IMG/VR virus record: IMGVR_UViG_3300028048_003124
Length of the DNA stretch: 64,000 nucleotides
Strand: one strand, 5' to 3'
DNA from: a virus
Taxonomy: Duplodnaviria > Caudoviricetes
In this document: in pieces, positions 45,446 through 54,312 of the stretch
How positions within the stretch are numbered: the stretch's first letter is position 1
How the letters are laid out: each line of letters begins with the position of its first letter
Position numbers and translations under genes: made by a program
Notes under the pieces: model-generated
The model's input: only the letters and a program-made list of their open reading frames with translations
Database searches by the model: none
What the model was told of the DNA's origin: nothing

Positions 45446-46414
45446 ATGGTACTTAAAAAACGGATTATGATTATACTATGCGTTGTATTGGCATTATTGT
45501 CATTAGCAGGATGCCAAAAAGTTGTATATAAGGGTACAACTAATCCAAATAGTCATAGTGTTGCTACTGAAGATGAGGTGGTTGCTACACCTGATTCAGT
45601 TGAAGATACTGATGAAAAAGACGCCGATAAGGGTGATGATGAAGAAGAGGAAAAGGCTACTGCAGATGAGGCTTCTAAGGACGATAAGTCTGAAAACAAG
45701 AAAGATGACGATAAGAAGGACGAAGAGGATAAGAAATCAACTGAGAAGCCTACTGAGGCTCCAACGGAAAAACCAACAGAAAAGCCTACCGAGGCACCAA
45801 CAGAAGCACCTACTGAAGAGCCAACTGAGAAAACTGAGTATGAGATTGGCGAGACTAGTAGAGAAAATCCAGCTCCAAAGGGAACATGGGTTGATTATAA
45901 AGTAAGAGATTATAATACTTTGGAGATGTTTACTACAAAGGTTAAAATAAATGACATTACAACACAGTCTGAAGATGAGGATTATGTAAAAGAGGTATTA
46001 GACGATTACAATGAGTCCCATCTGGTAAAGTTGGATACAAAAAATATGTCTGCTAAGATTGAGATTGTTGTAGCAGATATAGAAATGAAAATACCAAAAG
46101 GTGAGAGCGTAGAAGATAGATTAGGAGCTCCTCACCCGATAAGTTTTGATATTGTACGTCCAAAGGGTATTGATTATCGGGATAAAGATGGTGATAAAGT
46201 TAAATTTGTCACATACGTTGGTAAATTTGAGGAGTATTCAACAACTTGTTCCGCAGGTGATACTGTAAAAACTAAGCTTATTTACGGAATGGTAAAGGGT
46301 TTTGATGATTACTATATAAAAGTCACCTCTTTCTCTGATTTTGACGGAGGGGATTGTGACTATGCATATCTAAACATTAAAAAGGAACCAGTAAAAGTAC
46401 ATAAGGATGACTAA
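45446..46414 (+). CDS. lipoprotein with acidic and TEKP/TEAP linker
   Basis: Lipobox LAGC, low-complexity linker. Confidence 0.8.
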   Translation: MVLKKRIMIILCVVLALLSLAGCQKVVYKGTTNPNSHSVATEDEVVATPDSVEDTDEKDADKGDDEEEEKATADEASKDDKSENKKDDDKKDEEDKKSTEKPTEAPTEKPTEKPTEAPTEAPTEEPTEKTEYEIGETSRENPAPKGTWVDYKVRDYNTLEMFTTKVKINDITTQSEDEDYVKEVLDDYNESHLVKLDTKNMSAKIEIVVADIEMKIPKGESVEDRLGAPHPISFDIVRPKGIDYRDKDGDKVKFVTYVGKFEEYSTTCSAGDTVKTKLIYGMVKGFDDYYIKVTSFSDFDGGDCDYAYLNIKKEPVKVHKDD

Positions 46415-46482
46415 ACTTTTACTATCAAAATAAGAGTTTGTTTAAAAAATTTATAGATTTTTTAACTTTTTTCTAGAAGGTA

Positions 46483-46511
46483 TTGCAACTATTTCTAAGT
46501 TGGTGTATAAT
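46483..46511 (+). promoter_or_regulatory. sigma-A type promoter of the RNA island
   Basis: TTGCAA-17-TATAAT preceded by an A/T-tract UP-like element. Confidence 0.75.
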
Positions 46512-46644
46512 AGCAGTACCGTAAGGGAGTTAGTCGTTAGTGGCTACTCTTTGAGGATAGTAAGTCGCAATAATCATTTAATAAGTTGACGGGTTTGGTT
46601 TCTGTTCCTGATACAATTGTAAGTGGTTTTGTGATTTAATATAA

Positions 46645-47229
46645 TGTTCCTTGACAATTGAATAAATACCTTTGATTAAGTGGTAACTCAGTGAAGAAGG
46701 AAGTGTCACTCCTGCTGAGATGGGTTTGCGATTTTGAGACGGGCGATATTTAGTAAGGATACTTCTAAGTGGAGGTCGAGATATAGTAGTGATGCTATTG
46801 AAGCTGTTTGCGTGTAATGTAAACAGATCTGAGAACCCAGTGCTGAGTATATCATTGTAAAAAGTAATTTCGATGTGACGAAGCCGTAATAGACGTCTTG
46901 TATGGCAGAATAAGATCGGTATGAGAAAGAATCCTAAAGAGATCTAAGCTTGAGGAAGTTTATTGGTCTGTAGGAAAAACCTAACTAAGGCTAACTTGAT
47001 TGGTGTTGAACCACGAAAGTGGGTATAAGTTTCAAGAAATGTACTTCTGCTAAAACCGCCAATATTAGAAGAAGCACCAAGGAGGTGCCAGTTTTAGTGA
47101 CTGTGGAAGTTGTGGGTAAATTAGTCCTACATACTATCAAGTAGTATTGACTGAATATTGCAATGGTATATAAGGTAGCTACAGTTGTAGCACCACGATT
47201 AAGGGTATTTATTCAATTGTCAAGGAGCA
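46645..47229 (+). ncRNA. ROOL-like large structured RNA (~585 nt)
   Basis: 32-bp terminal helix (29 WC + 3 G-U), no ORF in the track, internal hairpins, heads a tRNA cluster; size fits ROOL. Confidence 0.65.
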
Positions 47230-47364
47230 GCGGTGGTAGTTTATATAAAATACCAGACTGTTTTCTCGATTGTTATGTAAAAACCGAAGATCCGAAAAAC
47301 TTGTAACCCCTGTTACAATTACAGTCTGGAGAACTTCTATTAAAGAAGCCACCGTTTATTATAA

Positions 47365-47441
47365 GGGCTTTTAGCTCAGTAGGTTAGAGCAGCTGACTCA
47401 TAATCAGCAGGTCTAGGGTTCGATCCCCTAAAAGCCCACCA
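47365..47441 (+). tRNA. tRNA-CAU (probably Ile2, possibly elongator Met)
   Basis: Cloverleaf; gctga-ctcataa-tcagc; CCA; overall resemblance to Ile2 tRNAs. Confidence 0.9.
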
Positions 47442-47451
47442 TTGATAATAT

Positions 47452-47610
47452 GCGAGTTCTGAAAGAAGGTTCAGCTCCCTTTGTGGAGGTAAGAAGTAAA
47501 AACGGCATGATGAAAGGTATCGTAACCATGGCTCTACGGTATTTAGTAATTGGATGAGTCTCCCTTACCAATACAAAGGTTTGGCGGTTCGAATCCTGCA
47601 GCTCGTACCA
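47452..47610 (+). ncRNA. tRNA-like RNA A with ~100-nt expanded anticodon arm
   Basis: GCGAGTT/AGCTCGT-A-CCA acceptor, D-like hairpin, GGTTCGAATCC T-loop. Confidence 0.6.
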
Positions 47611-47959
47611 TACATATCAAAACCTGATGATACACCGTAATATAGCATAACGGCGGAAGAATGTTTCATTGAAATCCTTAATGTATCACAAACCGTAAGC
47701 AGCCCCGAACACAGAAACAACCTGTTCTCTGGGCAATCCCATAAGCGCCACACCATGCTGTGCAGAAAAGGTATCTGCGACAAGCCTTGAATAATGACAG
47801 ACGCTTAAGTAATATTTCTGGATTGACAGACCACAGACGTAACAGATACGGAAAGCACTTACAAGTGCCACCCAGTTTAAGGTCTGGGTGGACAAACTAT
47901 TTTATATGGAGATTCCGTAAGAGGTGTAGGTAGTTAAAATCTACTAATCTCCACCAAAG

Positions 47960-48350
47960 AGTGTGACATAGATTAACAAGGTCTATGGTGTAACTCATAC
48001 CGTGTTCAGAGACGGTGGATGTAATGTTCAAAACTGAAATAGATATCCGTCTAAGCCTTGAGATATGTCGGAATCGAAGGAGGGTACTCAAGGGAGTTCA
48101 CAGTGCGACAGGCAGGTGACATACCTATACTCTAGAAGTAGGTACTTGTTATTTAGACTAATGGGCAACATTGGTAGGCTTCTTTTAGAAGATAGTTGCC
48201 AACTGGAAGGGGCGTAAGGCATTTCCAGTCCAAGCCGCACGCAAAAGGGTTCTGAAATGGCGGCTTAGTAGAACCGAGAATGTACACAGGCTTTGAAAGT
48301 GTACTCGGTAGGTGTTCATGAGATTGATATAATTCCTACCGAAGCCTAAC
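47960..48350 (+). ncRNA. candidate structured ncRNA with pseudoknot
   Basis: Multiple helices; taggctt/aagccta closing stem; ggttct/agaacc loop pairing. Confidence 0.5.
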
Positions 48351-48352
48351 GA

Positions 48353-48538
48353 CGGGTAATAGTTTAATGGTAAAACACTTCCCGAGGGTAAGAAAGTTAG
48401 TATAACAGCAGGCTCCATTACTCGAATGTGAGGGTTTGGTAATTTATACTAGGAGTAAGGTATAATTACAAGTTATTTGGTGTAAGCCCATCTTATCTTT
48501 GTATGGAGGAAACGTAGGTTCGAGTCCTGCTTATCCGT
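48353..48538 (+). ncRNA. tRNA-like RNA B with 122-nt insert in place of the anticodon loop
   Basis: Canonical acceptor, D, anticodon and T stems; loop 48383-48504. Confidence 0.7.
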
Positions 48539-48548
48539 AATAAAACAT

Positions 48549-48635
48549 GGGGGATTGGTGTAATTGGCAGACACAAGGGATTTAAGTTCCCTTGAAGGCA
48601 ACTTCGTATGGGTTCAAGTCCCATATCCCCCACCA
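48549..48635 (+). tRNA. tRNA-Leu(UAA)
   Basis: Cloverleaf; aggga-tttaagt-tccct; long variable arm; CCA. Confidence 0.93.
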
Positions 48636-48650
48636 GATGATAGGTTTTTT

Positions 48651-49026
48651 ATGGCAGGAATAAAATACGTTTTTAGTAACTACTCAGAAGAGGATTTGAA
48701 AAGCCTTATAGCAAGTTGTACATCTATTGCGGAGTTAGGTAGAAAATTAGGCTTAAGTGGCAGAAATGTGTACAATGTAGGTGAGAGGTTACAGGATTTA
48801 TATCCTGAAGAATTTGCTTATTATACTGGATTGCCATGCTTTAACAGATAACTATAGAGGTAAGAATTCTACCAACAGGTGTTATGTATCAGACGATAAA
48901 ATACTAGAAGTTATCAAGACTAAAGAAAATGTTAGGCAGGTACTATTAGAGCTGAATTTACCTGCTTCTGGTCATTCTTATAAAAGGGTTAGAGAATTAG
49001 CCAGAAGTATAGGAATTTATTGGTAA
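48651..49026 (+). pseudogene. degenerate HNH homing endonuclease
   Basis: Two overlapping frames: YSEEDLK...SIAELGRKLGL N-terminus and NL...CH..TDNYRGKN HNH tail; core appears deleted. Confidence 0.65.
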
Positions 49027-49040
49027 TAAATATAATAGTA

Positions 49041-49071
49041 GGTGTGGGTTCAAGTCCCATCACCGCTACCA
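49041..49071 (+). pseudogene. orphan tRNA 3' half
   Basis: gtgggttcaagtcccat T-arm + caccgct-a-cca with no adjacent 5' half. Confidence 0.7.
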
Positions 49072-49136
49072 CAGAAGGGCAAGAACATTCACTTGCCCTT
49101 AAACTTTATTTAAAGTTTGAAGGTGTAATATTGTAG

Positions 49137-49381
49137 ATGAAGAATGTAGTTATTTTTATCATAGCTCTATTACTTGTACTGACTTTTGTGTTCGGTGCAA
49201 GCAGTTGTAGTACTCACGATAGTCGGCAAAATGTAGGTACTCCAGATGAGGTACAAAATGGAATGTAGGAACACTAAAATCGGGTATTACTCCGTTATAT
49301 GATAAAAATGGTAATATAATGAAGTACCAAGAGTTTGAAGACGCTGTTAAATACTACAATATAAGGGTTTATGATGATTAG
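49137..49381 (+). pseudogene. frameshifted small lipoprotein gene
   Basis: MKNVVIF...ASSC signal stops at 49270; SGITPLYDKNG... continues in another frame. Confidence 0.5.
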
Positions 49382-49448
49382 GGTTGGTTAGTGTTAAAAT
49401 TGATTAATTCTCAATGTTTCATTATAGTAAAAACTTTTATTAAGCCTA

Positions 49449-49477
49449 TTGCATTTTGTGGCAAGATATGGTAAAAT
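49449..49477 (+). promoter_or_regulatory. sigma-A type promoter
   Basis: TTGCAT-17-TAAAAT with TG extension, upstream of tRNA-Gly. Confidence 0.65.
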
Positions 49478-49513
49478 AAGTATGTTCTTAAAAAGTTAAA
49501 TTTTAAGAAGTAT

Positions 49514-49587
49514 GCAGGTGTAGTTCAACGGTAGAACATCAGTTCCCCAAGCTGAGTACATGGGTTCAATCCCCATTATCTGCTCCA
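49514..49587 (+). tRNA. tRNA-Gly(CCC), atypical C33
   Basis: Cloverleaf; tcagt-tccccaa-gctga; U73 + CCA. Confidence 0.85.
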
Positions 49588-49987
49588 CAGGCGTTATTAA
49601 ACGTCTGTTTGATGGGCGTCATACCAGTGCTTTTTGCGAACATGTATTGTGTCCCTGTCGCCCTGATATGGGTAGTAAGATGCGAAAGCATTTAGCTATA
49701 GAAAAACTCTTGTTGAGAGGTTCTTCTTCGTGGCTATTAGGGAGAGCCTCTCCCCCTAAGGGTTGTAATTGGTTTTAATACATATATAATATAACTTATA
49801 TTTGTATTAAAGCTTATTACAACACGGGTGATAAGCTTTAATGCGTCCAACACATGTAGGCTGATGTGTGGTACAGGCATTTGTTCACTTGGTTTATGCC
49901 ATGTGAACCCTCCAACCAAGTGGGGTTCTGAGCTCATTTAAGGACCCCACAATTTTTATAAAATAACTAAAAATTTTCTTAATGTAC

Positions 49988-50016
49988 TTGCAATATATGG
50001 TAATTTATGGTAAGAT
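49988..50016 (+). promoter_or_regulatory. sigma-A type promoter
   Basis: TTGCAA-17-TAAGAT with TG extension, upstream of tRNA-Pro. Confidence 0.65.
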
Positions 50017-50082
50017 ACAGACATCAAAATAAAACCTTAGTATTTGTCTTATGAAAGACGAGGGTACAAAGCGTTTAAATAA

Positions 50083-50157
50083 CGAGGTGTAGCCCAGGGG
50101 TAGAGCGCTTGGTTTGGGACCAAGATGCCGCAGGTTCGATTCCTGTCACCTCGACCA
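50083..50157 (+). tRNA. tRNA-Pro(UGG)
   Basis: Cloverleaf; cttgg-tttggga-ccaag; C1-G72, A73, CCA. Confidence 0.95.
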
Positions 50158-50292
50158 CGAGTTATAGTAATTTGTTTTGTCGGTAGCCATACGATTTGTT
50201 TTTAGGAGATCTCGATAAAATCTCAAAAACCAAAAATGGAGTTGGGGTGTGCTTAATAAATATAAGCATAACCCCATCTCAAGTGTCGATAT

Positions 50293-50391
50293 GCTAATGT
50301 TAGTGTAACTGGAAGCACCCCACTGGAAAGGCGAGCGGTATGCCGTCATAAGCAAATGTGGCAGTAGCAGGTTCGAGTCCTGTCATTAGCA
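50293..50391 (+). ncRNA. tRNA-like RNA C with ~34-nt anticodon loop
   Basis: GCTAATG/CATTAGC acceptor, gtgt/gcac D-stem, ccac/gtgg stem, GCAGGTTCGAGTCCTGT. Confidence 0.6.
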
Positions 50392-50397
50392 AACAAA

Positions 50398-50762
50398 AGT
50401 GAGGAATCGGTAAAGGTTTCAGACTCACAGAGGTATGCCAGAAGCTGTACCATTCAGTTCCCTCTCCTTTACAGTGAGCAAGAGGCATATTGCTTGATGG
50501 GCACAAGGGTTGAAAGTGTCCATGGATACCCTAATGTGTAAGGCGGTGTGGGTTGCAAGCCGTCGTCAAGATAGTTGATACCCGTGAATACTGCCGTATA
50601 AACGGTGCGCTGAAAGCGGCAGTGAGGTTGGTGTCGGAAATATCAACCAATAGGCAATGTATGCAGTTGGTAGAAAGCATACTCACAAATATATGTGTAC
50701 CAACAACGCATTCAGCCCCTGAGAGAATGCATCTAGGGAGTTTTAGAGTTAAACTCCCTACG
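50398..50762 (+). ncRNA. candidate multi-hairpin ncRNA
   Basis: Consecutive helices atgggcac/gtgtccat, actgccg/cggcagt, ggttggtgt/atatcaacc, gttggta/taccaac, tagggagttt/aaactcccta. Confidence 0.5.
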
Positions 50763-50775
50763 ATGGGGTAAATAA

Positions 50776-50851
50776 TCCTCATTAGCTCAGTCGGTAGAGC
50801 ATGCGGCTGTTAACCGCAGGGTCGTTGGTTCGAGTCCAACATGGGGAGCCA
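50776..50851 (+). tRNA. tRNA-Asn(GUU)
   Basis: Cloverleaf; tgcgg-ctgttaa-ccgca; G73 + CCA. Confidence 0.95.
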
Positions 50852-51091
50852 GGAGAGTCCTATAATCTAACTATCGATTACTGAAACTGGTTATGGTGAG
50901 AGATGTCTAAGGGCTAATGGATCAGTTAGATGGCTTCGTATCATCTGGTTAGGCTACCCAGACAATACGTAGAGTCTAAGTCTGCATAGTCCCTAAGGCT
51001 AACCGAAGGACAGGGAGTAAGTCATACAAGTTAGGGTATGTATCGTGATCACAGTATAGCCCTCGTACTGAAAACCTAACAGAGGGTACAC

Positions 51092-51165
51092 GCAGGTATG
51101 GTGTAAGGGTAGCACAACAGCCTTCCAAGCTGTTGGTGAGGGTTCGAATCCCTTTACTTGCTCCA
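51092..51165 (+). tRNA. tRNA-Gly(UCC)
   Basis: Cloverleaf; acagc-cttccaa-gctgt; U73 + CCA. Confidence 0.95.
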
Positions 51166-51192
51166 TAATAATTAATTGGGGAGTTGAAAATA

Positions 51193-51390
51193 ATGGTAGG
51201 TTGTATCATCTCTTTTTTATTCGGAGGAGTGTTCGGAGTTGGTATCATGTGCATTATGAACATAAGCAGCGCTAATTCCAGAATTGAGGAGGCTATGATG
51301 AAAAATGAGAGAAGCCACGAAGAGGGAGTACATATGAACAATGATGAAAGTTGGGATTTTTACTTCAGCGGTGGTAATGTTAAAAAGTAA
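51193..51390 (+). CDS. small membrane protein (DUF3789-like)
   Basis: FLFGGVFGVGIMCIM hydrophobic segment; GGGGAG RBS. Confidence 0.55.
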   Translation: MVGCIISFLFGGVFGVGIMCIMNISSANSRIEEAMMKNERSHEEGVHMNNDESWDFYFSGGNVKK

Positions 51391-51410
51391 TCTTTAAAAC
51401 CATAATAAGT

Positions 51411-51447
51411 ATTGACCATCTTCTTTTTAAGGATGGTCAATTTTTTT
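51411..51447 (+). terminator. intrinsic terminator ending the RNA island
   Basis: attgaccatctt / aaggatggtcaat plus T-run. Confidence 0.85.
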
Positions 51448-51540
51448 GTAATAATGTATTAAAATTATAGAAGTGTATGTTTACTTACATACATTGTAAT
51501 AGATATTTTGTTGTTTATTATATCTGTTTAAGGAAGAAGT

Positions 51541-53004
51541 GTGTCTACTATGGATATACAAGTGAAGAACCACGAATGGAGAGGTATCGACAAAGTAAAG
51601 AGTATGTTAGATAGCTTTGATGATAACATAATTGTCTACTTTGATCCAGACGTAGACGGAATGATATCTGGGTATTTTGTTTGCAAGTTTTTAAAAAGTA
51701 GCGGTAAAAAGTACTCATGGTATGTTAATTCTAATAGAAGTCATGATTGGAGCATACCTGTAGAAAAACTCAAAGGCATGAATGTCATTGCAGTAGATTT
51801 TATGATATCCAGAGATACTATAAAAGACTTAGTATATAACGGTTGTAATATAGTAAGTATGGACCACCATGTAAATCAGAATGCTCAAATATGGATAAAT
51901 CACGCTGGAAAGAGTGGTATTGTAATAAACAATCAGTATCCTTTTGAGGACGAAGACGGTAGGTACTTATCAGGGGCAGGGGTAGTTTTTGAGACCCTAA
52001 GAAGTATAGATCCAGATTTTGACACTGAAGAGAATAGGGCATTGGTTGGCTTAACGTTACTATCTGATGTGTGTGATATAGAAAACCCTTTAGCAAAAGG
52101 GTATTTATATAAGTTATATAATCATAAAATGAAGGGTTATGTTAAATATTTAATAGAAAATACAATAGGTGAGAGAGATTTCGGTTTTGGAGTACCAAGG
52201 CTTGATAGAAAGTATGTAGATTTCAAATTCTCCCCAGCTATAAACTCTTGCTTAAGGTTTAATAAGGAAGACGAGGTTGTAAGATTCTTTTTAGGTAGTG
52301 GTAATCTGGACTTAAGTTACCATACAAGGCAGAAAGAGTTGGTAAAGGCTATGGTACAGTCTGCAACGGTGCGAGAATTTTCTAACTTGCGTGTTGTTTA
52401 TGTCCGAGATTGGGAGGTATTAACTACAGAAGATATATCTGTACTTTCAAATTTCATAGGTTTGATTGCAAGTAGATTTCTTGATGGTAAGAGGTCTGTA
52501 ATATCGTACCTAATAAGCAAAAACGACTTGGGAAATGGGTATGTTAAGCGTGCAAGTTTTCGTGGTAATGTGAATGGAGTAGATTATCTCAGTATGCTTA
52601 ATGGTATATTAACTGGTGTAGGACACCCATCAGCATTTGGTATAGTTAGTATAAGCCCATCTAAAGTCTTGTTTAATAAGGCAAATGACTTATGCAAGAA
52701 AGCAGAAGGTTTAAATACTAACCAAGTAAATATAACTCCTGTTGCCAATTTGTCTATATTTGCAGCAACGAAGGGTAAAGGCATGGCAGAATATAATATG
52801 TATTGCCTATCTCAGAATAGTAAGTATATACGGTACATAGGTAACAATTACAAGATAAAGAGAGAAGGAGCTAATTTTGTAAGGTACTTAGTAGATGGTA
52901 TAGAAGTTATAAGCTTTGATACAACATTAACTTTTTCAACTGGTTTAATATATCCAATATTTGAGAGAGGCTATGTGTATTATTATCTTCAAGGAGATAA
53001 TTGA
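51541..53004 (+). CDS. RecJ-like DHH family exonuclease
   Basis: YFDPDVDG, AVD, MDHH, INN, LSGAGV, LLSDV, GHPSAFG. Confidence 0.85.
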   Translation: MSTMDIQVKNHEWRGIDKVKSMLDSFDDNIIVYFDPDVDGMISGYFVCKFLKSSGKKYSWYVNSNRSHDWSIPVEKLKGMNVIAVDFMISRDTIKDLVYNGCNIVSMDHHVNQNAQIWINHAGKSGIVINNQYPFEDEDGRYLSGAGVVFETLRSIDPDFDTEENRALVGLTLLSDVCDIENPLAKGYLYKLYNHKMKGYVKYLIENTIGERDFGFGVPRLDRKYVDFKFSPAINSCLRFNKEDEVVRFFLGSGNLDLSYHTRQKELVKAMVQSATVREFSNLRVVYVRDWEVLTTEDISVLSNFIGLIASRFLDGKRSVISYLISKNDLGNGYVKRASFRGNVNGVDYLSMLNGILTGVGHPSAFGIVSISPSKVLFNKANDLCKKAEGLNTNQVNITPVANLSIFAATKGKGMAEYNMYCLSQNSKYIRYIGNNYKIKREGANFVRYLVDGIEVISFDTTLTFSTGLIYPIFERGYVYYYLQGDN

Positions 53005-53145
53005 TATAATTGTTAAAATGTATATACATAGAGTATGTTAAATTAGAACTTAGAAGTATTACAGTAGTTTCAAGAATGTACTTTTTGCGTAAGTTTTTCT
53101 ATGAGCTGTACTTTATGTATATCTTATTTTTTAGGAGGTATTTAT

Positions 53146-54312
53146 ATGATTACAGGAACCGCTAAGTTGGTGGTAGACTTAGGTAACTCCGAAACAAGAG
53201 TTATGACTCTGTTCGGAAAAACTGCCAAGGGAAATCCTAAGAAAAGAACTTCTGTGCTTAGCAATAGGTACAGTGTTATTTCGGAGGATAAACTAGAGAC
53301 ATATTTGAGCGGTGGTACTTACACAGATGAGAACTCTGCTGTGTTTAGATTGCCTAATGGAGCTCTTTACTGCAACGGTGATCTTTGCAATCTTGAGATG
53401 GCGCAGACTTCTGTAAGACCCTCGGCTCTTGAAAAGAAGTATGAGACACTGATTTCCAAGCTTTCTTTGATCAATGCTATCAAACAAGGTATTGAGGATG
53501 TCGCAGTGTTTTCTAATTGTGATATGGAGAGTGTCGATGTAAACTGGGAAATGTATCTGCTGTTGCCCCCAGAGGATATCGACGCTGGTGCTAAGCAGAT
53601 CGCTGATATGGCAAAAAGTATCACAGAGATTGACTTCGTTCTGCCTAAGTACAAAACTAATATCAACATCACAAAGGTAAATGTATATCCTGAGGGTATG
53701 TGTGCCTTTTTTGGTGTTATCTTTGAAAGGAAGGGTGTACCCCGTCCCGATTACAGGTACCTCATTGAGACTGGCGAGTCTACGGTTATCTTTGATATCG
53801 GTGCAGGTACAACAGATATTGTTATGGTAAAAGGAAGTCAGGTAATCCAGAGTTCCAGATTTACCAAGGAGATTGGTGGCAATAATGTTCATCGTATTGT
53901 TCAGAGATCTCTTAGAAACAAGGGTATTTCTCTCCCCGAGGAGGTTCTTAGAGAGGGTGTAAATACTGGTTATGTTCGAAGTGGTTCTCGTACTGTAGAT
54001 ATTACAGAGGATATCGCAGAGGCTAAGAGAACGGTTTCCAACCAGCTTGTAGATGCTGTACAGGAGTTTTTCGAGAGCTCTATGATTAGCATTCGCACTA
54101 TTGCTAATATTCTTATTTGTGGTGGAGGCGCTGAAGAGTCAGCAAATGAGAATATTGCTCCGATTGCTAATTATGTAGTAGACTACATGAGACGGTTAAC
54201 TCCCGATTTGAAGAGAATTGAGATGCCCAGTACAGTGACATCGGATGGTGAAGAAGAAAAGCTCTCACCTCGTATGCTAAACATTATTGGAGCGGGAATT
54301 CTTGCCGAATAA
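53146..54312 (+). CDS. ParM/StbA-like actin-fold ATPase
   Basis: VVDLGNSETR (phosphate 1), YPEG, FDIGAGTTD (phosphate 2), ICGGGA (adenosine); AGGAGG RBS. Confidence 0.88.
   Translation: MITGTAKLVVDLGNSETRVMTLFGKTAKGNPKKRTSVLSNRYSVISEDKLETYLSGGTYTDENSAVFRLPNGALYCNGDLCNLEMAQTSVRPSALEKKYETLISKLSLINAIKQGIEDVAVFSNCDMESVDVNWEMYLLLPPEDIDAGAKQIADMAKSITEIDFVLPKYKTNINITKVNVYPEGMCAFFGVIFERKGVPRPDYRYLIETGESTVIFDIGAGTTDIVMVKGSQVIQSSRFTKEIGGNNVHRIVQRSLRNKGISLPEEVLREGVNTGYVRSGSRTVDITEDIAEAKRTVSNQLVDAVQEFFESSMISIRTIANILICGGGAEESANENIAPIANYVVDYMRRLTPDLKRIEMPSTVTSDGEEEKLSPRMLNIIGAGILAE

Follow-up and report, generated by a model that had tools for sequence, protein, structure and literature searches.

A ROOL RNA gene of a rumen mobile element with a boxA-like sequence in its extended closing helix

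We analyzed a 64,000-nt stretch of DNA from the IMG/VR virus record IMGVR_UViG_3300028048_003124 (Duplodnaviria; Caudoviricetes), the source of which was a bovine rumen metagenome. This stretch is called the window here, and all positions refer to it. The window carries a bona fide ROOL RNA gene on the + strand, the closing helix of which (the stalk, 46645-47229) reaches beyond the Rfam model of the family and starts with a boxA-like sequence. ROOL belongs to the small number of RNA-only cages found in nature. While ROOL itself was already known, two points are new. Judged from sequence, a third of the ROOL lineages, of which the window is the clearest, seem to carry a boxA of the rRNA operon (rrn) type inside a leader-trailer helix of extended length, and the RNA that accumulates appears to be what this helix encloses, after trimming. 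In a literature search, we found no paper containing both ROOL and boxA, and none, among the papers listed, linking ROOL to antitermination, NusB or RNase III. We regard it as rather probable that the RNA arises from a boxA-bearing precursor with a leader-trailer helix, by Nus-aided transcription and RNase cutting.

A ROOL RNA inside a long closing helix

Analysis with cmscan revealed that the interior of the stalk is a full-length match to Rfam ROOL (RF03087; 46663-47208, + strand; model positions 1-574; 129.7 bits versus a gathering score of 99.1; E = 1.8e-26). A first-pass annotation made from the sequence alone had called the locus "ROOL or ROOL-like" and proposed a search with the ROOL covariance model as a check; with its score above the gathering score, the locus is a true ROOL. 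The core blocks are present in the correct order and spacing, with GGATAC 59 nt on from AGTGAAGA and AATAGACG 125 nt further. Thus, covariance score, core blocks, closing helix, context and abundance all place the locus in the family. BLAST of the locus returned only a tRNA match from phage records and nothing from plasmids; ROOL is too divergent for BLAST.

The ROOL family was described by Weinberg et al. 2017 (PMC5737381), and the homo-octameric, RNA-only nanocage is known only for env-120 and further members studied by cryo-electron microscopy (cryo-EM) (Kretsch et al. 2025; PMC12286853). The window member resembles other ROOL RNAs in its core motifs, its mobile-element setting beside a tRNA island, its high abundance and its size of ~525 nt, as in L. 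salivarius. However, it is among the most divergent of the members compared, since most relatives score 230 to 375 bits, and it has the longest and most stable closing helix as well as the best boxA match of the 40 lineages compared below. Furthermore, the ROOL literature examined makes no mention of a layer composed of boxA and a leader-trailer helix beyond the limits of the Rfam model. GOLLD RNA (RF02032) is likewise a large ornate nanocage-forming RNA of phage and prophage tRNA islands, but it differs in sequence and structure, and no GOLLD match was found in the window. Both families can occur together: the viral contig L131:972-2417 carries ROOL (327.7 bits) and GOLLD (173 bits) on the same strand, with a tRNA between them, in one phage tRNA island.

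The stalk was found exactly where it had first been placed, as a 32-nt inverted repeat at 46645-46676 and 47198-47229 with 91% complementarity. Counted base by base, it consists of 29 Watson-Crick and three G-U pairs with zero other mismatches, which confirms the 32 bp of the first-pass annotation and also its statement that all three non-Watson-Crick positions are G-U on the + strand (46647-47227, 46671-47203 and 46674-47200); the minus strand would give A-C. The helix is prolonged inward by U46677-G47197 and, after a 2-nt AA bulge, by GUGGU (46680-84) paired with ACCAC (47192-96), to a total of ~38 bp. We refer to 46645-46677 as the leader strand (5' arm) and to 47197-47229 as the trailer strand (3' arm), both on the + strand. 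The 616-nt region comprising stalk and interior folds with -198 kcal/mol (z = -8.2). The 16-bp closing stem P1 of the ROOL model (pairs 7-22/555-571) aligns to 46669-46684 and ~47189-47205. Since the model closing stem corresponds to the inner stalk, the stalk is the ROOL P1 extended by 18 nt (5') and 21 nt (3') past the Rfam boundaries.

To score the start of the 5' arm, we derived a 16-nt-wide matrix from 23 real rrn boxA sites of Bacillota. These reference sites themselves score 17 to 24 bits; they came from the 16S leaders and 16S-23S spacers of ~17 Bacillota genomes and not from the host's own rrn operons. The boxA-like element GTTCCTTGACAATTGAATAAATA (46646-46668, + strand) reached 19.2 bits and thus lies within the range of the real sites. 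On both strands of the window (128 kb), the two stalk arms were the sole sites above 12 bits (19.2 and 19.8), the next one scoring 11.2 bits, and GTTCCTTGACAA was the sole exact match to GTTCYTTGAMAA within the window. Bacillota leader sites follow G[GA]TC[TC]TTGAAAA[CT]T[GA]AACAG and spacer sites GTTCTTTGA[AC]AA[CT]TGCACAG. With the Streptococcus spacer boxA GTCCATTGAAAATTGAATAA, a segment of the 16S-23S spacer, GTTCCTTGACAATTGAATAAATA agrees at 20 of 23 positions, and 46643-46655 agrees with the Bacillus subtilis consensus AUGAUCUUUGAAA at 10 of 13. This consensus, an rrn boxA-like RNA, binds NusB as detected by NMR (PMC13753749).

The position of the element is also that of an rrn boxA. In Clostridium carboxidivorans and Streptococcus hyointestinalis, a check by hand revealed that the leader boxA segment pairs with the sequence directly after 16S. 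The spacer boxA segment, in turn, pairs with the sequence after 23S and forms the outermost 5' strand of the resulting helix. The window boxA lies inside the 5' arm in the same layout as in the 16S and 23S of Streptococcus and Clostridium. The boxA-like start noted in the first pass therefore scores like real rrn sites and occupies the equivalent place in the helix. At the sequence level, "rRNA-style stalk with a boxA start" is an accurate description of the architecture, which goes beyond likeness to a 12-mer.

The window sequence was present in 20 public runs (12 studies, six RNA libraries), and contigs from four rumen metatranscriptome studies were aligned to 45800-51800; being contigs and not reads, they give neither strand nor exact ends. 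ROOL contigs were obtained in all four, namely 46782-47203 at a depth of 2503 (X9), 46730-47202 at 9.4 (X17), 46768-47204 at 720 (X18) and 46680-47204 at 21 (X20; a 523-nt contig covering 525 window bases). This confirmed that the locus is expressed, for which abundance in RNA sequencing had been named as the check. The 3' end fell within 47202-47204 in four independent studies, inside the stalk, and in X18 an Illumina adapter was fused directly after 47204. In X9, the depth of 2503 in ROOL compares with 5.9 in the upstream gene and ~107-141 downstream, and a separate contig (47179-47855, depth 107) comprises trailer strand, spacer, tRNA-Met and the next tRNA-like unit. Judged from the contigs, the abundant RNA contains 7 nt of the 32-nt trailer arm and is devoid of the outer 25 nt, while a read-through form, ~20-fold less deep, links ROOL to the tRNAs.

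We take 46680-47204 (+ strand; 525 nt) as the candidate mature ROOL, with the 3' end from four studies and the 5' end from one contig. The RNA contigs cover neither 46514-46679, which includes the leader strand, nor, in three of the four runs, the positions from 46680 to 46730, 46767 or 46781, which has no bearing on the start site. The ROOL of L. salivarius is a 520-nt lncRNA (long noncoding RNA) that is as abundant as 16S and measures 507-526 nt by circular rapid amplification of cDNA ends (RACE) (Cousin et al. 2017; PMC5643018), and the 525-nt span agrees with this range. The promoter of the L. salivarius RNA maps to -225 to -450, so that this RNA derives from a longer precursor (PMC5643018). 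Trimming by a 3' exonuclease against a helix would not leave an end within a perfect duplex; such an end suggests that either the duplex was cut or the leader strand had been removed beforehand.

Closing helix and boxA across ROOL lineages

Additional ROOL loci were collected from viral, genome and metagenome contig collections with a three-block gapped core pattern that is independent of the flanks. A single 16-mer probe (AACNCAGTGAAGAAGG) was rejected in favor of this pattern, as it retrieved 105 loci of which just 2 were ROOL. The 120 loci with complete flanks formed 40 sequence clusters (lineages), the representative of each being a full-length Rfam ROOL. In 28 of the 40, the 46 nt upstream of the core paired with their own 3' flank better than with that of any other lineage, and we conclude from this lineage-specific complementarity that the closing helix covaries. 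Covariation was judged across lineages, because the cluster of the window ROOL has one member and no near relatives were found. The window had the strongest lineage-specific stalk (-54.4 kcal/mol versus -19.9 ± 2.5 for foreign partners; z = -13.6), and in 25 of the 40 lineages the stalk runs for 22 bp or more without interruption (median 29). Thus, the view that the repeat is a helix at the RNA level stands, and long closing helices are common among ROOL RNAs and under-represented by the 16-bp P1 of Rfam.

The boxA motif was detected at a score of at least 8 bits in 14 of the 40 lineages when the 100 nt upstream of the core were searched. All 14 matches are located at -23 to -48 from the AGTGAAGA anchor, which is the outer 5' edge of the closing helix. 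By comparison, of 5844 control windows taken from these loci, 0.92% reached 8 bits (binomial p = 6e-19). Furthermore, 2000 column-permuted matrices, which served as a composition control, brought 0.35 lineages to this score on average and at most 5. When 12 motif-bearing lineages were aligned, each column of the motif held 1.4 bits and the flanking columns ~0.3-0.45; since these low-information neighbors are also in the helix, the motif is constrained beyond pairing. The consensus of the motif-bearing lineages is GAAC[CT]TTGAAAA[CT]TnAATA.

The motif is located directly upstream of the 5' boundary of the Rfam model in almost every lineage that bears it, and in the relatives it comes after a canonical promoter or a tRNA. 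Where ROOL is in the middle of a tRNA array (L120, L290 and L274), the motif stays on the ROOL stalk, as the spacer boxA stays on 23S. A tRNA follows directly downstream in 12 of the 14 motif-bearing ROOLs versus 13 of the 26 others (Fisher p = 0.04). In several lineages (L113/L305 with 20 members, L140, L119 and L184), a tRNA ends 0-4 nt before the short ROOL stem or overlaps it, and there is no boxA-like motif. This suggests that motif-free, tRNA-abutting lineages use a second route of release, one relying on tRNA processing.

Several further elements were observed in this survey. Control windows outside ROOL scored up to 18.3 bits on the boxA matrix, and 0.05% of them reached at least 16 bits; from their sequence, these may be further boxA sites heading other phage RNA operons. 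The tRNA islands with boxA-bearing ROOLs include a phage-encoded transfer-messenger RNA (tmRNA) in L120, L249 and L290, and group I introns were also found in L111. At other ROOL loci, we detected a skipping-rope RNA (L305), RAGATH-18 (L107) and a type II hammerhead (L184).

A proposed route of biogenesis and its alternatives

The rrn antitermination complex contains NusB, S10, NusA and NusG, and rRNA maturation involves RNase III or Mini-III. By analogy, the leader strand and the trailer strand of a longer ROOL precursor would form the ~38-bp helix, in the design of Bacillota 16S and 23S. The emerging boxA would recruit NusB-S10 at the RNA polymerase, and the Nus-modified elongation complex would stay processive through the long untranslated island and hold the leader strand until the trailer is made. 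The finished duplex would be cut by a double-strand-specific RNase of the RNase III or Mini-III type. Trimming would free the stable ~525-nt RNA, which accumulates to a very high level, and the downstream tRNAs would be released separately. The leader-trailer helix is essential for 16S biogenesis (PMC10250234), and the holding of the leader strand by rrn complexes is discussed in the same article and in a 2026 preprint.

The resemblance to rrn operons comprises a boxA-grade sequence as the outer 5' strand of a long-range helix around a large, stable and abundant structured RNA, a contig-based end inside the helix, tRNA genes later in the transcript, and two tandem promoter-like sites upstream. 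In contrast to rrn operons, the helix encloses an RNA other than rRNA, and the locus belongs to a mobile element; furthermore, no clear boxB hairpin or boxC was found, and a promoter-like site overlaps boxA. Sites of boxA outside rRNA operons have been described (Baniulyte et al. 2017, PMC5725501; the CRISPR case as cited within PMC13753749). Like the phage lambda nut sites, suhB and the leaders of CRISPR arrays, the window has a boxA ahead of a long untranslated transcript at risk of Rho-dependent termination. However, the boxA of lambda nut, suhB and CRISPR leaders is a single-stranded leader element, documented mainly in Gammaproteobacteria, and does not form half of a processing helix that surrounds a giant structured RNA.

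In view of these data, the proposal of the first-pass annotation that the RNA is expressed and matured like an rRNA holds for the abundance, the 3' end inside the stalk and the read-through into tRNA-Met, while we infer the Nus antitermination and the nuclease. The farther-reaching claim would be that about a third of the ROOL lineages, including the window, borrow the production line of the host for rRNA: boxA would load NusB-S10, protect and chaperone the transcript, and pass the duplex to the rRNA-processing RNases. We put this forward tentatively, giving it slightly less than even weight. If true, it would explain the rRNA-like abundance of a mobile-element RNA, the elements could compete with rRNA operons for Nus factors, and boxA/Nus-dependent transcription in Gram-positive bacteria would extend from rRNA to mobile-element RNAs. 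The locus and the 13 other lineages point to a testable route, consisting of an rrn-type boxA in a leader-trailer helix, trimming to ~525 nt and continuity with tRNAs, with NusB, S10, RNase III and Mini-III as candidate host factors. The boundary of the Rfam ROOL model cuts off a conserved and putatively functional element. Moreover, structural ROOL papers used in vitro transcripts with ends chosen by the authors, and the locus offers candidate mature ends for structural and functional work.

Several observations weigh against the rrn-like route. The motif was not found in 26 of the 40 ROOL lineages and is therefore not required for ROOL as such. The lineages sharing it may belong to one clade, in which case the 14 are not 14 independent events. 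In the putative leader (46512-46700), we detected no convincing boxB hairpin (fold z = -1.6). The ends of the abundant RNA were drawn from assembled contigs, the 5' end at 46680 from a single one. In Bacillota, the need for rrn-type antitermination is unsettled, and Rho is dispensable in B. subtilis (PMC13753749). Finally, the promoter-like site TTGTAA-17-TATAAT (46617-46645, + strand; 10/12 in a consensus scan) has a -10 that adjoins boxA and a predicted start at ~46652, inside the 5' arm. Since this best promoter-like site would start inside boxA, boxA would act only on transcripts from further upstream. For these, TTGCAA-17-TATAAT (46483-46511, + strand; also 10/12), which follows an A/T-rich stretch, is the candidate start of a 127-nt leader with the whole boxA.

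The alternative that survives best accepts the stalk as a true processing or folding helix and takes the boxA-like words as a recognition or measuring element of a nuclease or another protein, or as a folding clamp. The likeness to rrn boxA would then be due to shaping by the same processing enzymes. Since boxA lies inside the processing helix in Bacillota rrn operons, Nus and processing functions are inseparable by sequence alone. In line with this alternative, transcription from the promoter-like site adjoining boxA would truncate the Nus site, yet leave ~25 bp of helix. Furthermore, B. subtilis Mini-III prefers ACC^U in double-stranded RNA (PMC4357697), and an ACCU/GGGU step (46668-46671/47203-47206) is located 1-3 nt from the observed 3' end; it predicts an end at 47205 versus the observed 47202-47204. 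However, the other boxA-bearing lineages do not share this step at a fixed position. Moreover, the conserved columns of the motif (G1, C4, TTGA and AA) are those of the rrn boxA, which binds NusB in B. subtilis, and the motif correlates with downstream tRNA arrays, i.e., with long untranslated transcripts. We therefore consider this explanation unlikely, though it deserves the most attention after Nus-aided production.

We judge it improbable that the helix is a structural P1 kept in the mature nanocage RNA, with the ends at 47202-47204 being assembly artifacts and the boxA likeness a coincidence in an A/U-rich stem. The Rfam model does already hold the 16-bp closing stem, P1 takes part in tertiary contacts of the cryo-EM structure (PMC12286853), and contigs are no rigorous definition of RNA ends. 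Nevertheless, four independent studies stop within 3 nt, one of them with the adapter fused at 47204, and the separate X9 contig that crosses this point is ~23-fold less deep. In addition, the motif enrichment holds against both the permuted matrices (14 versus a maximum of 5) and the control windows, and 525 nt agrees with the circular-RACE sizes of another ROOL.

A DNA-level inverted repeat that happens to enclose an RNA gene, such as a recombination site or the terminal repeats of an insertion element or a miniature inverted-repeat transposable element (MITE), deserves hardly any credence and is already largely refuted: although a near-perfect 32-bp inverted repeat with a spacing of ~520 bp is laid out like a small non-autonomous element, each of its three imperfect positions is a G-U pair on the strand that carries the RNA gene, a full-length ROOL whose Rfam model takes in the inner part of the helix lies inside, homologous helices that are unrelated in sequence flank ROOL in 28 of the 40 lineages, and neither of the MITE marks named in the first pass was found, namely a target-site duplication at the stalk flanks TTTAATATAA and GCGGTGGTAG or further copies of the 26-nt stalk arm (at most 3 mismatches; none beyond the two arms in 64 kb, 0 matches in 100 shuffles).

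The RNA island and its surroundings

ROOL heads an island of ~5 kb of untranslated RNA and tRNAs on a large rumen Bacillota mobile element. Between 46415 and 51540, no open reading frame (ORF) exceeds 121 amino acids. The first tRNA of the island, tRNA-Met (CAT; 47365-47441, + strand), starts 136 nt downstream of the stalk, is joined to ROOL in an RNA contig and is followed by five further tRNAs. At its end, the island has a strong terminator-like hairpin with a 12-bp stem and TTTTTTT (51411-51441, + strand). An intrinsic terminator at the stalk itself was rejected, because the helix is followed by GCGGUGG and no U-run, and because an RNA contig crosses into tRNA-Met. The spacer between stalk and tRNA-Met (47230-47364, + strand) appears structured and is contained in the read-through contig of X9. 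It is closed by GCGGUGG/CCACCGU, which encloses a CCAGACUGU/ACAGUCUGG helix; the fold of 47205-47445 has a z of -3.3.

Upstream of ROOL, the two promoter-like sites are 134 nt apart and, as far as sequence goes, are reminiscent of rrn P1 and P2. A TTGACA within the arm was rejected as a -35 element, as the matching -10 is poor (GATTAA) and the RNA contig from 46680 precedes the predicted start. In addition, the first 16 nt of the 5' arm (TGTTCCTTGACAATTG) have a degenerate copy in direct orientation, TGTTCCTGATACAATTG, which was read from the sequence at 46603-46619 (+ strand), 42 nt upstream of the arm, where it overlaps the -35 of the second promoter-like site. Owing to an indel, the boxA matrix gives this copy a score below 0; the copy could be left over from a duplication or serve as an alternative partner for pairing.

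Other parts of the island were also represented among the RNA contigs. The ORF-free blocks 47474-47858 and 48099-48798 were recovered with a depth of 33 in X18 and depths of 107 and 192 in X9, and neither block has an Rfam match at E ≤ 1. Going by these contigs, the RNA libraries seem to contain the whole tRNA-punctuated island. Another RNA of very high abundance was detected at ~50304-50731, with contigs in all four studies, a depth of 1339 in X9 and an adapter abutting 50304 in X18. It starts inside a 99-nt tRNA-like match (50293-50391) and stops ~45 nt before tRNA-Asn. Its Rfam matches are tRNA only, and the fold of 50290-50735 (z = -1.5) is uninformative on structure.

The genes of the window are all on one strand, with a strong G skew. 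They include sortases, pilins, BspA-type LRR (leucine-rich repeat) proteins, a UvrD-type helicase, a RecJ-like exonuclease, an actin-like partition ATPase and a PhoH-like protein, a predicted gene content suggestive of a large mobile element from a Gram-positive bacterium. The actin-like ATPase (53101-54312), which has MreB-like_C and Alp7A_C domains, is located directly downstream of the island, beside the RecJ-like DHH protein (51541-53004). By its domains, this locus suggests a plasmid-type partition system on the element.

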